IMG/VR virus record: IMGVR_UViG_3300025470_000036
Coordinates: 1-43,318 of that record
Source: a virus
Lineage: Duplodnaviria > Caudoviricetes
Length of the DNA stretch: 43,318 nt
Reading direction: 5' to 3' (one strand)
Under the pieces are notes generated by a model. That model searched no databases and was not told where the DNA came from. It saw only the letters and a list, made by a program, of their open reading frames with translations. Position 1 is the stretch's first letter. Every line of letters begins with the position of its first letter. This document shows positions 33,708 to 43,095 of the stretch, piece by piece. A program made the position numbers and the translations under genes.

Positions 33708-33893
33708 ATGAACACCAAGCTTCCTGAGCAATATTATGCTTACGTGCCTCACTCTCGTGTTGACGCGTATGTTGAAATTGGCTGGGAGTTCGAAAGTGAA
33801 TTGCCGCCGCCGCATTGTTTCTATGCATGCCTATACAGATGGATTGGCGAGGGGGAGCCATTAATGCCAAAACGAACAGATCAAAAAGAATAA
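33708..33893 (+). CDS. small hypothetical protein
   Basis: AAGGGA RBS; YVPH.RVDAY...GW.......H..YA.L..W. Confidence 0.55.
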   Translation: MNTKLPEQYYAYVPHSRVDAYVEIGWEFESELPPPHCFYACLYRWIGEGEPLMPKRTDQKE

Positions 33894-33964
33894 AAAAAGA
33901 CCCGGCTGCAACCGGGCCTAAAAGGTTAACCATTGGAAGAGACATCACCAAAAAGGAAATGGCT

Positions 33965-36244
33965 ATGTCGAGCGATAAGCTATCAGACATTGATGTATTG
34001 CGTCAAGATTTTGAGCAAGAATACGCGTCACCATCACAGTGGGCGCGTATGTATCGATCACTTGGGTGGCAGGTTGTTCCTGTCATGCTGCCGTCAGAGG
34101 CAAAGCCAGGCAAGAGCTGCAAGCAGCCTATTGTAAAGTGGGCGGAGCACGAGCGTGAGCTTACGTCAGACGACTTATTCAACAAGTGGTATGGCGCTGA
34201 CGGTCTTTACTCTAAGCGCATTAATATGGGCATCATCACTGGCGAGTGCTCGCAGTCTTTATTCGTCATCGATCTAGACCTACACAAGAACACATTTCCT
34301 GCGGTGTGGTGGCAAGGCATTCACGACGATCACGCGGGCGGCATACTGCCTGACACGCCACGGTCGACGACTGGCGGTGGCGGCAAGCATTATTTTTTCA
34401 GAGCTCCTCCGGGATGGGTGCCGCCTACAATAAAGACGCCTCAAGGCATCGACATTAGAGGGCGCGGCGGCTTTGTCGTGTCTGCGCCGTCACTGCACGA
34501 GACCGGCAATAATTACATATGGGACGAAGGCTTCGAGCCCTGGAACATAGAGGTCGCGGTTGCCACGACGTGGCTGTGCGAGGAGGTCGAGCGTCTCGTA
34601 TTAGAGAACGGCGGCAACATGCCTCACGAGGCCGTCAATCCAAGAACCTATGAAATATTGCCGCCGGTTCCTGGTCACGGTATGACGGGCGTCCAAAAGA
34701 ACGAGTTCGGTATGATAACCGACGGGCGCGAAAGCCAGATGGCCAAGATGATCTTTGGCCGTATGCTAGACGAGCGGCGCAAAGACCCAACATTCCCCGA
34801 CCCCGACCGCATACAGCGCATAGCGATTGATTTGTTCAAGCAATATGTGTCGCTGGTTAAGACGCGGATTGATGACCCCATTGCGCAAAAGCATGACTTG
34901 CTTGAGCGCGAGGGCCGCGGCCTTACGCTCTTCACGGAGAAGATGCACGACGCCCTGCGCAAGTGGGACACGAAGATCAAGCAATACGCGGAGGCCGGCC
35001 CTCCCCCAAAGCATGAGAGGCTTGAGCACAGACAAGACGCAACAGACAGCGTTAATCCCGACGAGGAAGAGTTTAATCTCAAGCCTGAGCAAATATCCAC
35101 ACTGATGAGAGACCCCAGCGTCTTCAGGACGCTGACCATCCAGGAAATATACGACCTCCCTGATCCGCGTTACTTGATCAAGGATCTCTTAATCGAGAAT
35201 GGCCTTTGCTTCGTCTACGGAGCTCCCGGATGCTGCAAAACCTTTATCGTGCTGGATATGGCGCTCTCCATTGCTGCCGGCCTTCCTGACTGGTGGGAGA
35301 AGCCTATAGAGCGGTCTGGGCCGGTCCTATACATCAGCTCTGAAGGCGTGACCGACATGAAATTCCGCATCAAGGCGTGGTCGGAAAACAACGGTCTTGG
35401 CGCTCCCCCTCTTCCTTTTCGCCTGCTTGATGAGAGCATGAACTTTATGAATGAGGAGGACATCGACAAGCTCATACGCACAATCGACAAGGCTATCCAA
35501 GGCATGGAAGGAGAGGTGCCGGTCCTTATCGTCATCGACACTGTCTCTCGTGTCCTGCCTGGCGCAGACGAGAACCTGCAGAAGGACATGACGCTGTTCA
35601 TCAGGGCGTGCGACCGCATCAAATCCAAGTTCGGCTGCTGCACCCTTGGCGTTCATCACACGGGCCGTCAGGGGGCAAATATGAGAGGCTCAACGGTATT
35701 TGACGGTGCCGCCGACGGGTCTTTCCTGATCGCTCGTGAGGAGGGCGCAATGGAAGGCCAGATCATGGCCAAGAAGATCAAGTCTGCGCCTGACGGGTGG
35801 ACGTGGGACTTTGGCATTCACTTGACGCCACTGATCTCAGGAAACACGTCACTGACTGTTACGCGAATGTTCGACGCAACGACAAAAAAAGATAATGAAC
35901 CGGTTCGTTCTCATGCTGACTTTGGCAATGCCCAGGAGACTGGACGCATCCACGTCGGCGGAAAGAAGAGGGACGCCGTCCTGTGCTTCAACATCTTGAA
36001 CGCCCTTCAAGACGACTTTGAGGACGGTCGTGGGTGGTCTATGGCAAAGAATACGTCCAGGGACTTCAGGAAGAACATGCACACACTCTTTAAAATTGAA
36101 CACAAGGAAGCGGAAGAAATCATAGACGACTGGTATGCGCGCCGTATCATTTCCGAAGAGTATAACAAGAACACAAAGGTCACGAGCTACAAGCTTGGTG
36201 ACAATTGGCTGCCCGACTTTAAGCGCAAAAAATACGACCGGTAA
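33965..36244 (+). CDS. bifunctional primase-polymerase (Prim-Pol) fused to an AAA_25/RepA-type helicase
   Basis: NMGIITG...LFVIDLD, TGGGGKHYFF, GIDIRGRGGFVV.APSLH; Walker A GAPGCCKT; VIDTVSR, DEN...DM, HHTGR...RGST...AAD; start placed after the AAGGA RBS. Confidence 0.88.
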   Translation: MSSDKLSDIDVLRQDFEQEYASPSQWARMYRSLGWQVVPVMLPSEAKPGKSCKQPIVKWAEHERELTSDDLFNKWYGADGLYSKRINMGIITGECSQSLFVIDLDLHKNTFPAVWWQGIHDDHAGGILPDTPRSTTGGGGKHYFFRAPPGWVPPTIKTPQGIDIRGRGGFVVSAPSLHETGNNYIWDEGFEPWNIEVAVATTWLCEEVERLVLENGGNMPHEAVNPRTYEILPPVPGHGMTGVQKNEFGMITDGRESQMAKMIFGRMLDERRKDPTFPDPDRIQRIAIDLFKQYVSLVKTRIDDPIAQKHDLLEREGRGLTLFTEKMHDALRKWDTKIKQYAEAGPPPKHERLEHRQDATDSVNPDEEEFNLKPEQISTLMRDPSVFRTLTIQEIYDLPDPRYLIKDLLIENGLCFVYGAPGCCKTFIVLDMALSIAAGLPDWWEKPIERSGPVLYISSEGVTDMKFRIKAWSENNGLGAPPLPFRLLDESMNFMNEEDIDKLIRTIDKAIQGMEGEVPVLIVIDTVSRVLPGADENLQKDMTLFIRACDRIKSKFGCCTLGVHHTGRQGANMRGSTVFDGAADGSFLIAREEGAMEGQIMAKKIKSAPDGWTWDFGIHLTPLISGNTSLTVTRMFDATTKKDNEPVRSHADFGNAQETGRIHVGGKKRDAVLCFNILNALQDDFEDGRGWSMAKNTSRDFRKNMHTLFKIEHKEAEEIIDDWYARRIISEEYNKNTKVTSYKLGDNWLPDFKRKKYDR

Positions 36245-39202: not shown

Positions 39203-39383
39203 CGAAGAAGAAAAGACGCCATTTAAAATTGAGAAGGTGACAAAAATAGTTTTGGCCTGCAATCACTTTGTTGGACACGCGCGAGTAGATGAGGACATGC
39301 TGCCGACAACGTCGTCAAGCAGACGAAAGATCCCAATGTCATTGCCCAGGGTTAAATTCCTGGAGGGGCCTGATCCAAAATAA
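39186..39383 (+). CDS. small hypothetical protein
   Basis: GGGAG upstream; ends SLPRVKFLE; stops immediately before the terminator. Confidence 0.45.
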   Translation: MKCPSDEEEKTPFKIEKVTKIVLACNHFVGHARVDEDMLPTTSSSRRKIPMSLPRVKFLEGPDPK

Positions 39384-39410
39384 AAGGCGGGGAAATCCCC
39401 GCCCTTTTTT
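39382..39410. terminator. bidirectional rho-independent terminator
   Basis: AAAA-GGCGGGG-aaat-CCCCGCC-c-TTTTTT between convergent operons. Confidence 0.85.
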
Positions 39411-39777: not shown

Positions 39778-40014
39778 CTAAATAGTTGCGTCAGCCTCTT
39801 GTCTCAATTCGTGGCACACCACCTCAAGCAGCCAGTCTCTGTCAATTGCTCCCTCCTTCAAGCCGTGCATGACAATTGCCACGAGGCGTGGCACTGGGTG
39901 CGTCGCGGAAAGCCAGGAAGTAACCTGACGCGGTGTCTTGCCTGTAATGGTAGCCAAGTCATTATTTGACAGACCTTGGGCCGCCATTGCTTGTTTGAGC
40001 TCTAGAGGGGACAT
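39778..40014 (-). CDS. XRE/Cro-like HTH DNA-binding protein
   Basis: M.P.EL.......GLS..DLA..TG.T.RQV..W.....PVP..V. Confidence 0.75.
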   Translation of the reverse strand: MSPLELKQAMAAQGLSNNDLATITGKTPRQVTSWLSATHPVPRLVAIVMHGLKEGAIDRDWLLEVVCHELRQEADATI

Positions 40015-40872: not shown

Positions 40873-41037
40873 TTATTTATACTGACCATTGACTAAACGC
40901 TGCACTCTAAAGATCTGGTTATTTTTTCTGTATACTTCCATCTGGAACGCAATGGACTTGACGTCCCAGGCGTGGGTAATGACAAGCCATTTGTTGTTAT
41001 ACATGAGCTGCAGGCGAAATTCTGGATATACGCGCAT
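40873..41037 (-). CDS. hypothetical early protein directly downstream of the ribozyme
   Basis: GGAGATTGACATG start. Confidence 0.55.
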   Translation of the reverse strand: MRVYPEFRLQLMYNNKWLVITHAWDVKSIAFQMEVYRKNNQIFRVQRLVNGQYK

Positions 41038-41050
41038 GTCAATCTCCATT

Positions 41051-41102
41051 GGTCTCATCAGTGCCCGCGTGACGGACAGACGGGGCGGACCCCGTTTCGA
41101 CC
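41051..41102 (-). ncRNA. type II hammerhead ribozyme
   Basis: minus strand GGUC-GAAA-CGGGG(UCCG)CCCCG-UC^-UGUCCG(UCACG)CGGGCA-CUGAUGA-GACC: both core motifs, GUC cleavage triplet and three paired stems. Confidence 0.95.
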
Positions 41103-41399
41103 TTATGCCGCGTCGGCTAAAGACGCCTTGACGCGCAGGGTGGTAATGACTTTGGTCTCAGTGACCAGCGCGACGTCCTCAGGGCTGAGCAGCTCCTTGA
41201 CCAACGTAGCGCTGACGCTGGAGCGTGGAGCCTTGGTGATGTTGACTGTGAAGTGCAGGCCAACAATAGCGTCGAGGGATGGGTCCTGGTTAACAAGCGC
41301 GTAGATCTCTTCCTTGATCTTCTCCAGGTCTTTGGCCGCCTTGTCAGCGATAACCTTGGCTTGAGCGTAACGGTCAGCGAGGATGTTGAGGTTTGTCAT
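41103..41399 (-). CDS. hypothetical early protein
   Basis: GGAGATTGATATG start; first gene after the 41435-41463 promoter. Confidence 0.65.
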   Translation of the reverse strand: MTNLNILADRYAQAKVIADKAAKDLEKIKEEIYALVNQDPSLDAIVGLHFTVNITKAPRSSVSATLVKELLSPEDVALVTETKVITTLRVKASLADAA

Positions 41400-41434: not shown

Positions 41435-41463
41435 AAGGTAGAGGAAGTTACTTCCTATGTCAA
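41435..41463 (-). promoter_or_regulatory. early promoter with palindromic operator in the spacer
   Basis: TTGACA-17-TACCTT; AGGAAGT-N-ACTTCCT at 41442-41456; AT-rich upstream tract. Confidence 0.75.
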
Positions 41464-41502
41464 TACACTTAGTGCGTTTTTTTAAAAATATTTTGGCCCC
41501 CC

Positions 41503-43023
41503 TTATTGGGGGACCATGACTTCGATAAGTGAAGACTTGGCTCTTGTTGCCGCCACGTAGCAAAGATTGTCTTCCTGGTCCTGCTGCCACTTCTGCGTAG
41601 CGTAGGGGCTAGGCAGTGTGCCTTCACGGTCAAGCCAGTAAACCGTCTCCCACTCGCGGCCCTTTGCCTTGTGGATGGTGCTGAGCGTCAGCATGTTGCT
41701 GACATTGTCCTCGAACAAAGACTGGATGCTGTCGACCACTGCCTCAATGCTGTCGTTGCCAGCCCTGCGGCATTCGCCAGTGATAACCATGATCGTGTCA
41801 GCCTGGTCCTTGATCTGCTGAGCCAGTGCGCCATTGCCCTTGGCCTTAGCGCGGACGATCTGAGCCTCTGACCAATTGGTGACGCGGGTCTCAAGGCCAT
41901 GCAGCGTTTTGGCTGTCTTCCACTTGGTAGCCAGGTTGATCAGGCCCTTGCCAATGTCTCTGCCTTCTACCTTGCAGGCGACACGGGCGCGGATGAGCTC
42001 GAAGGCTAAAGAGACAAGAGGCTTTGTGTTGCGGCACAGAATAGCCGCGGAGCCATCCAGGTCATTGCGGCCAAATACGTCAGCGCGGTCAATAACGCTG
42101 TAAGATCCTTCAGGGGCGCTGTCGTGGGCCTCAATGTGATTAACCCACTGATGAGCCACCCTGACCACTTCCTTAGGGCATCGGTAGGTCACTGTGAGCG
42201 GCATGTCGACCGCATTGAAGTCTTCCTTAATCAAGTCAAGAGCGTCAGCGTCAGCGCCAGTGAAGCCGTAGATCGCCTGACGACGATCGCCAACGGCCAC
42301 AACCCGACCGCCTGGAGCAAGCAAAGCCTTAACCAAAGCGCGACGCGCTGGGTTCGTGTCCTGGGCTTCGTCAACAAACACCCAGGGATACGTCCAGAAA
42401 CGCAGCTTCAGGAAAACAGGCAGGTAGACCATGTCGTCGAAGTCAACGACCGACGTGGTGCTGTTAGACTTCTTTAGGACCTCAATGGCCGTGGCAACAA
42501 TATCGCCTAATCGCTTCTCAGCCTTGTCGGTCTTTTCATTAGCCAGGATGTCGAAGTGCTCGACAATCTCATACCACTGGGAGGTGTCGTCAATAGCGCC
42601 AAAAACACCCAGGGCGCGCTGCTTAGCCAGAGACACAAGGTTAGCCACGATTGAAGAAAACAAGCGGACGGCATGCTCTGGGTGAGCTGACTTGCCCATA
42701 GACACCAGGATGTCTGTGACCTTGTTGCCGTCGACGCGGACGCCTGGGAATGATTTTTTGTATGCGCCAAGGCCAAAGCCGTGAACCGTATTGGCATTGG
42801 CCTTCTGCCAGTCAATCTTGCGGGCCTTGAGCTTGCCCTTGATCTCGTCAGCAATCTTGCGGTTGTAGGCAAGAATAGCGACTGGCTTGTCAGTGCGCTC
42901 GACAGCCTCAATCAGCGTGGTGGTCTTGCCAGCGCCAGCGACAGCCTCAAGAACGCAAGAGCCCTTGCCGGTCTCAACCCAGTCTAGGAAGGCAGCTTGT
43001 TGTGGTGACGGAATAAAGGCCAT
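41503..43023 (-). CDS. UvrD/Rep-like superfamily 1 helicase
   Basis: AVAGAGKTT, VDEAQD, VGD.RQAIYGF.GAD, TYRCP, STIHKAKGREW, YVAATRAK. Confidence 0.92.
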   Translation of the reverse strand: MAFIPSPQQAAFLDWVETGKGSCVLEAVAGAGKTTTLIEAVERTDKPVAILAYNRKIADEIKGKLKARKIDWQKANANTVHGFGLGAYKKSFPGVRVDGNKVTDILVSMGKSAHPEHAVRLFSSIVANLVSLAKQRALGVFGAIDDTSQWYEIVEHFDILANEKTDKAEKRLGDIVATAIEVLKKSNSTTSVVDFDDMVYLPVFLKLRFWTYPWVFVDEAQDTNPARRALVKALLAPGGRVVAVGDRRQAIYGFTGADADALDLIKEDFNAVDMPLTVTYRCPKEVVRVAHQWVNHIEAHDSAPEGSYSVIDRADVFGRNDLDGSAAILCRNTKPLVSLAFELIRARVACKVEGRDIGKGLINLATKWKTAKTLHGLETRVTNWSEAQIVRAKAKGNGALAQQIKDQADTIMVITGECRRAGNDSIEAVVDSIQSLFEDNVSNMLTLSTIHKAKGREWETVYWLDREGTLPSPYATQKWQQDQEDNLCYVAATRAKSSLIEVMVPQ

Positions 43024-43066: not shown

Positions 43067-43095
43067 TTGGTATAGAAGTTACTTCTACTTGTCAA
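43067..43095 (-). promoter_or_regulatory. early promoter with palindromic operator in the spacer
   Basis: TTGACA-17-TACCAA; TAGAAGT-N-ACTTCTA at 43073-43087; followed by a C(UACG)G hairpin. Confidence 0.65.

Follow-up and report, generated by a model that had tools for sequence, protein, structure and literature searches.

A compact type II hammerhead ribozyme behind the leading gene of a predicted phage operon: a probable read-through substitute for a terminator

In this analysis, an intact type II hammerhead ribozyme of a compact class was read on the minus strand (41102-41051) of the window, by which we mean the whole 43,318-nt stretch of viral DNA analysed here. It occupies the first junction of a predicted seven-gene operon. 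The element is a real, ordinary hammerhead of a known kind, in a class that is poorly scored by Rfam. We consider that, behind gene A (the first gene), it probably takes the place of a terminator while allowing read-through, and leaves hairpin-capped ends. This proposal draws on what was observed of the sequence, the structure class, the family conservation, the gene context and the content of the same slot in relatives.

Anatomy and detection of the ribozyme

The letters at 41102-41051 agree with those quoted in the first-pass annotation, which had placed a hammerhead between a stop codon and the next RBS, and the type II topology and the predicted cut between 41079 and 41078 given there were confirmed by the sequence and a descriptor search (Table 1). 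Loops close stems I and III, and stem II is open. The CUGANGA core, the GAAA and the NUH site carry no deviation, and all three stems are present, with A15.1-U16.1 and G10.1-C11.1 beside the core. Stem I has 6 bp, to which a seventh U-G pair could be added, and a 5-nt loop, the open stem II has 4 bp, and stem III has 6 bp and a tetraloop. The 4-bp stem II adjoins the upstream stop codon as previously described, TAA at 41105-41103 touching 41102, and the predicted cut, put at about 30 nt before the RBS, measures 31 nt upstream of the SD. The SD lies only 3 nt past stem II (family median 10) and the AUG 13 nt past it. The motif is letter-identical in 6 of 6 near-identical viral contigs and in 5 of 5 near-identical metagenome contigs.

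Table 1. Coordinates of the ribozyme, its parts and the surrounding operon features in the window
Feature	Position	Strand	Basis
Type II hammerhead ribozyme, compact class	41051..41102	-	Sequence, descriptor, fold, RF02276 26.9 bits (below cut-off)
Gene A stop TAA	41105-41103	-	Sequence; directly before stem II 5' strand
Stem II 5' strand GGUC	41102-41099	-	Sequence
Core G12-A13-A14 (GAA)	41096..41098	-	Sequence
Stem III ACGGGG / loop UCCG / CCCCGU	41095-41090 / loop / 41085-41080	-	Sequence
C17	41079	-	Last base of GUC triplet
Predicted cleavage site, after GUC (C17)	41078..41079	-	Hammerhead consensus
Stem I UGUCCG / loop UCACG / CGGGCA	41078-41073 / loop / 41067-41062	-	Sequence
Core CUGAUGA (C3-A9)	41055..41061	-	Sequence
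Stem II 3' strand GACC	41054-41051	-	Sequence
SD GGAG	41047-41044	-	Sequence
Gene B start AUG	41037-41035	-	Sequence
Stem III hairpin; predicted to form the 3' end of the gene A message once cut	41080..41095	-	Fold of 5' product
Stem I hairpin; predicted 5'-terminal (5'-OH) hairpin of downstream message	41062..41078	-	Fold of 3' product
First U of loop I, 7 nt past the cut; predicted U-A tertiary partner	41072	-	Family counts; PMC9217987 (available portion)
A just 5' of stem II, last base of gene A stop; predicted tertiary partner	41103	-	Family counts
Gene A, 98 aa, first gene of predicted operon	41103..41399	-	ORF; 8 homologous proteins
Repeated RBS motif ATGGAGATTGAnATG and gene B start	41035..41049	-	Motif scan of window
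Gene B, 54 aa, no family	40873..41037	-	ORF; PHROG/Pfam searches
Promoter-like site TTGACA, 17 nt, TACCTT	41435..41463	-	By eye; palindrome 41443-41455 in spacer
Terminator-like hairpin, 3' of UvrD-like helicase gene, upstream of promoter-like site	41494..41516	-	Terminator scan
Terminator-like hairpin, predicted operon end	39382..39407	-	Terminator scan

A descriptor for all three hammerhead topologies matched once in the window when both strands were searched, and gave no match on either strand of 60 first-order Markov simulations of the window. No second hammerhead was detected by the descriptor in the 43,318 nt, and the clustered arrangement, in which at least two ribozymes bracket a gene, was not found; this single-copy count covers the window, the viral record being estimated as 69% complete. 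A second similarity match within the window was considered as another ribozyme copy and rejected, as it corresponds to the RBS repeat. The minimum-energy fold is the three-way hammerhead junction, with a stem II pairing probability of about 0.79 in a 101-nt context. The folding z-score was -0.51, which is not significant on its own, and 50 of 200 shuffles folded equally well. At the gathering score, Rfam gave no match for the element. A search with the Rfam hammerhead models had been proposed as a check in the first-pass annotation; RF02276 (Hammerhead_II) scored the element at 26.9 bits (E 0.0053 in a 1.1-kb search), below its cut-off of 37 bits. The sub-threshold score, the weak z-score and the missing pseudoknot (see below) would suit an inactive or chance look-alike, but the simulated windows gave no match and the core is free of any deviation. 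Moreover, only 1 of 27 compact-class copies, taken from 20 loci of the scan with fixed core and stem II, reached the RF02276 cut-off, which traces the low score to the model; among 20 loci of the A-loop variant described below, the cut-off was passed by 3 copies, all in L575. Thus, we regard a look-alike as very improbable.

The surroundings are those of a phage operon of small genes. The order is a UvrD-like helicase gene, a terminator-like hairpin, a promoter-like site, seven small genes and a final terminator-like hairpin, and from this layout we infer that the operon is early. The repeated RBS motif, with six window matches at up to one mismatch against 0.02 expected, precedes the first four of the seven genes, and an HTH gene is among the later ones. 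At other junctions of the operon, the SD stands right behind the stop. Phage context, small non-conserved ORFs and sense-strand placement were all found for the hammerhead. Gene A gave no PHROG or Pfam match; seven of nine gene A homologues matched DUF7307 weakly (best E 0.0066; the window gene A itself did not), and beyond that only unnamed viral clusters came up for gene A. A homologue of gene B (56%) is found in L509 without a preceding hammerhead. In an annotated phage collection, only the helicase was matched (67-71% identity, 10 records, mostly Brevundimonas and Dinoroseobacter phages) and nothing informative on the ribozyme was obtained; these helicase matches, about 70% identical as DNA, are mostly to alphaproteobacterial phages. 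No RNA dataset was listed among the sequencing runs for this DNA, which counts neither way. The promoter-like site was missed by a consensus promoter scan and its -10 matches at 3 of 6 positions; of 10 representative loci, 8 have a -35-like pentamer at -64/-65 relative to the AUG. The palindrome in its spacer is kept in most gene A homologue loci and is likely the operator for the HTH gene at 39778-40014. A copy with two mismatches lies at 43074-43086, upstream of the helicase gene; 4 palindrome matches were counted where 1.19 are expected by chance, which makes the additional copies weak. A Prim-Pol plus AAA_25 primase-helicase is encoded at 33815-36244 (plus strand), transcribed toward the operon.

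The compact class and its loop contact

The family was surveyed by pattern scans of viral and bacterial DNA; these are samples, and the counts cover the matches listed. When the core and the window stem II were fixed, 126 loci of an estimated 350 were listed, with 129 distinct copies. A stem I of at least 6 bp and a paired stem III occurred together in 123 of the 129 listed, and the stem I segment was 17 nt long in 120, a length not imposed by the pattern. With stem II left free, an estimated 1,600 viral stretches match the compact pattern; stem II had 4 bp in 100 of 113 copies listed, with at least 25 different 4-mer pairs. Covariation across related phages had also been named as a check in advance, and judged by counts the stems covary, including the 4-bp stem II of the compact class. 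The G10.1-C11.1 pair was fixed by the pattern of the pooled family scan, and its count there is no independent test.

When the length of stem I was left free, 117 type II copies were obtained from 91 of 131 loci (the other 40 lacked a structured match and were dropped), and two architectures appeared among those listed, with stem I segments of 17-19 nt (43 copies) and 21-26 nt (73 copies). In the long class, the pseudoknot of Perreault 2011 (at least 4 bp joining loop I to the tail behind stem II, as in Fig. 2A of that paper) occurs in 49 of 68 copies, against 0.20 for shuffled tails. For the compact class the pseudoknot was rejected, its frequency (19/348) being at the shuffle level of 0.05, and the window copy, in which pairing between loop I and the 3' tail is absent by eye, does not belong to the pseudoknot class. 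The compact class makes up 43 of the 117 copies listed in this sample, which is unbiased for stem I length, and the Rfam cut-off misses most compact copies tested. A better model would recover many unannotated ribozymes.

Compact copies were also found in 67 of 123 genome loci listed, whose titles span many bacterial phyla and many metagenome bins; the 56 loci without a structured match were dropped. Context counts kept 235 or 314 of 348 compact copies, short-flank copies being left out. Of 314 copies, 233 have an SD and AUG no more than 45 nt away on the sense side, whereas the controls gave 11 (shifted by 90 nt) and 1 (antisense side), and most copies have an A-rich spacer (median 10 nt) before the SD. 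Long arrays of about 8-9 compact hammerheads occur in L072-L074 and L153-L155, and another array (L448-L450) belongs to a record whose title names Phycicoccus jejuensis, a strain in culture. In some compact copies ATCAG stands 3' of stem II, often together with a loop I ending in U (by eye).

In fast hammerheads, a U seven bases past the cut pairs trans-Hoogsteen with an A of loop II, according to the available portions of PMC9217987 and PMC6155905. Among the 129 copies listed with the window stem II, the seventh base of the stem I segment is U in 127 and the base directly before stem II is A in 128, neither being imposed by the scan; with stem II free, this A stands in 111 of 113 copies listed. 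A scan for loops starting with other bases listed 118 matches, of which 66 unstructured ones were dropped and 52 were structured, 49 of them starting with A. In the pooled scans, 291 of the 294 listed copies whose loop begins with U have a flanking A, whereas the 45 beginning with A are flanked by U (32 copies), A (9) or C (4); thus, the need for the flanking A is relaxed once the loop U is lost (9/45 vs 291/294). These two positions had the highest mutual information of 11 columns (0.41 bits), a class-level value that is partly confounded by the stop codon, in a pooled set whose design over-represents both classes and in which relatedness is disregarded. Two observations favour a swapped contact: among listed copies sharing a stem II that begins with A, the flank is A in 33 of 35 of the U class and U in 27 of 28 of the A class, and in 8 of the 32 A-loop copies with a flanking U, the upstream gene ends elsewhere. 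From these sequence counts we take the coupling between the loop I base and the flank base as real, with the flank base as a candidate partner. A clean swap of U-A to A-U is weakened as an interpretation, as in 19 of the 32 the flanking U is the first base of a real UAG stop; the A-loop variant also deviates at loop position 5 and at the 3' flank. The window copy fits the motif U(N)mYN - R(N)mA at all four bases (U and C of loop UCACG, 5' flank A and 3' flank A), a full fit seen in only 134 of 294 U-class copies listed.

Several further features of these loops were recorded. The A-loop variant (loop A...A, flanks U and U) occurs with a flanking U at 26 loci, including L522, L523, L545, L562, L575, L584 and L618, and its upstream UAG stop is often part of stem II. 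In the U class, loop I position 5 is G, U or A, never C, in the 294 copies listed, and may pair with the first U in a U-A-U-type triple. A Twister-P5 ribozyme above the Rfam cut-off lies in L523 (528-582), about 180 nt past an A-loop hammerhead.

The slot behind gene A and the effect of cleavage

Homologues of gene A were collected from 9 viral and 18 metagenome loci. Five near-identical metagenome loci have the same ribozyme behind gene A, and none of the 13 divergent metagenome loci (40-66% identity) has a hammerhead there. As the first-pass annotation had missed, relatives fill this slot with a hairpin or an element like a terminator: a GC-rich hairpin lies within about 40 nt of the stop in 11 of the 13 divergent loci, that is, in six of seven lineages sorted by eye and not from a tree. 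The hairpin is U-tailed and terminator-like in four lineages (L653, L654, L655/L656 and L665) and has no U-run in L657-L661 and L664; the U-tailed hairpin of L508 was flagged by a second scan as well. In L662/L663 neither hairpin nor hammerhead was found behind gene A, so one lineage manages without the slot element. Of 9 divergent representatives, 8 have a local hairpin of -12 kcal/mol or lower behind gene A, as have only 4 of the 24 other genes in those loci, three of these four being HTH genes at the operon end; L657, L660, L661, L662 and three near-identical loci were excluded from this comparison as near duplicates. Homologues of the genes downstream in the window are retained in L655/L656 (via the matching loci L508, L509 and L511), L658, L664 and L665. 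In L508 (5938-6135) and L509 (5235-5432), a 65-aa hydrophobic ORF overlaps gene A by TAATG, and a U-tailed hairpin falls within its first 25 codons, an attenuation-like arrangement.

Several of these loci count against the substitute reading. In L653 and L654, gene A seems to be the last gene of its own transcription unit, where a terminator is expected regardless; in L655/L656 the hairpin sits inside the coupled 65-aa ORF; L662/L663 have an empty slot; and genes that follow a hammerhead occur elsewhere without one (gene B in L509, the L090 gene in L508/L509/L511). The ribozyme might instead be a hitch-hiking module, a ribozyme and RBS cassette that passes from one early operon to another through recombination at the repeated RBS and cuts with little effect on the gene pair. 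Such movement would suit L090, where two hammerheads, one with a nearly identical stem I, stand before the same RBS motif between different genes. It would also suit the same genes being found with and without the hammerhead, and the divergent lineages that do with a hairpin (6 of 7) or with nothing (1). However, the stems covary and the U and A are near-invariant over hundreds of copies, which requires selection for fast cutting, and a strong hairpin is far commoner behind gene A than at other junctions. We think such a module quite unlikely.

For the substitute reading, activity, transcription, product stability and purpose are inferred as follows. The operon message would cut itself, likely soon after synthesis. 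Cleavage behind C41079 would give the gene A message the GC-rich stem III hairpin as its terminus, a 3' end resembling the one made by a hairpin or terminator in relatives, and the downstream piece would begin with the 5'-OH stem I hairpin 31 nt ahead of the next SD. Because the 4-bp stem II alone links the pieces, they would part after the cut, making cleavage effectively one-way and freeing bases beside the downstream ribosome-binding site. RNA polymerase would not be halted, so the genes downstream would still be transcribed. Fast cleavage would rest on pairing of the loop-I U with the A 5' of stem II, not on a pseudoknot. This mechanism is supported by the intact core and three stems, by the structured family copies listed (123 of 129) and by the sense orientation ahead of genes. 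In PMC3088659, cleavage of tandem prophage hammerheads is described both in vitro and in E. coli, and the authors proposed in 2011 that messages are processed to the size of single genes. The first-pass annotation had suggested that cleavage splits the mRNA and gives the downstream piece a hairpin-capped 5'-OH end, which is consistent with the anatomy, the family context and Perreault 2011; it had missed that the stem III hairpin would also end the upstream piece.

As for the downstream piece, RppH and RNase E favour single-stranded, monophosphate 5' ends (PMC3997798, available portion), and the paired, non-phosphorylated end should be a poor substrate for both. The effect could be the opposite, because RNase J can degrade the 5'-OH end that follows glmS cleavage (same source). 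The downstream piece may even be the main target, stepped down because its 5'-OH hastens decay, or affected because the cut uncovers an RBS partly hidden by the ribozyme fold. There is the glmS precedent (PMC3997798, in part), the SD and AUG lie close behind stem II in the window copy (3 and 13 nt), and the U-tailed hairpins of relatives would likewise reduce downstream expression. But protection would be expected from a 6-7 bp hairpin at the very 5' end of the downstream piece, and the A-rich spacer of most copies (median 10 nt) means that occlusion is not general. We give this step-down reading little credence.

Cleavage could also be gated by translation. A ribosome footprint extends about 9 nt beyond the stop codon. 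The first-pass annotation had proposed gating by terminating ribosomes. On finishing gene A, a ribosome would sit over the tertiary A, the stem II 5' strand and the GAAA, and cutting would then track gene A translation. Gating is sterically plausible, and the stop geometry proved to be general: in 171 of 235 compact copies listed, the end of an ORF lies 2-12 nt ahead of G12 (1-9 in control windows), the stop includes the conserved A in 76 of 235 (48 + 28), and in 19 of 45 A-loop copies a real UAG stop gives the flanking base and two stem II bases. However, 64 of the 235 copies have no called stop there, and the pseudoknot class adjoins stops too (24/40). The non-catalytic hairpins of gene A homologues adjoin the same stop, so the closeness is not ribozyme-specific and points to compact genomes; other junctions of this operon are also tight, with the SD immediately behind the stop. 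A passing ribosome would slow the cut and would not block it unless stalled, and no signal altering gene A translation was found at the locus. Since the SD begins 3 nt past stem II in the window copy, an initiating ribosome could compete as well. On balance, a translation-gated switch appears unlikely. The same holds for a wider reading, which we advance only tentatively, in which phages swap compact hammerheads, as read-through terminators, and intrinsic terminators in one slot, and a stop codon built into the docking site lets gene A termination set how often the early message is cut. In this scheme, the docking base would be the A of UAA, UGA or UAG, or, with the contact swapped, the U of UAG in the A-loop variant.

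Relation to known systems

That type II hammerheads lie between small phage genes has been in print since 2011 (PMC3088659), and a U-A contact class for type II is not new in principle, as Fig. S5 of that paper had already scored it. The role of phage hammerheads is called open in the available parts of PMC6155905 and PMC6765202, and PMC13725137 and PMC13481778 contribute nothing further on phage operons. In a search of mainly openly accessible papers, we found no published report of an interchange of hammerhead and terminator, of stop-codon gating of a phage hammerhead or of the A-loop variant. The slot behind gene A offers a natural series (hammerhead, U-tailed hairpin, plain hairpin and nothing), and the job of the ribozyme can thus be tested by slot swapping.

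Compared with the type II hammerheads of RF02276 and Perreault 2011 (PMC3088659, available portion), the window copy shares the core, the GUC site, the open stem II, the placement among small phage genes and the proposed processing of polycistronic RNA. It differs in having no loop I-tail pseudoknot, a stem I segment of 17 nt instead of 21-24, a stem II of 4 bp instead of 2-3, and one copy in the window instead of a cluster. The U(N)mYN - R(N)mA contact, which it matches at 4 of 4 bases, was scored for types I-III in Fig. S5 of the same paper. In the reverse-Hoogsteen U-A pair of types I and III (PMC6155905 and PMC9217987, in part), the U likewise lies 7 nt past the cut. Loop II, however, is open in the window copy, and the A would come from the 5' flank as the last base of the stop codon; in the A-loop variant, this flanking A is dropped.

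The terminators and 3' hairpins of relatives (L653-L665, L508) share with the hammerhead the slot, a GC-rich hairpin behind the stop and a predicted protected 3' end of gene A. With the hammerhead, in contrast, the end would be made after transcription, the polymerase would not be stopped and the downstream piece would be capped too. In the early message of T7, RNase III sites cut a long message ahead of the RBS and give structured ends, with a host enzyme needed and a 5'-phosphate left, and the engineered RiboJ insulator trims the leader just ahead of the RBS to a structured end. Compared with these two, the window hammerhead is natural and protein-free. The glmS ribozyme (PMC3997798, available portion) likewise produces a 5'-OH mRNA by self-cleavage, but it is ligand-gated and leads to decay, whereas the window copy showed no ligand element and its new 5' end is predicted to be base-paired.
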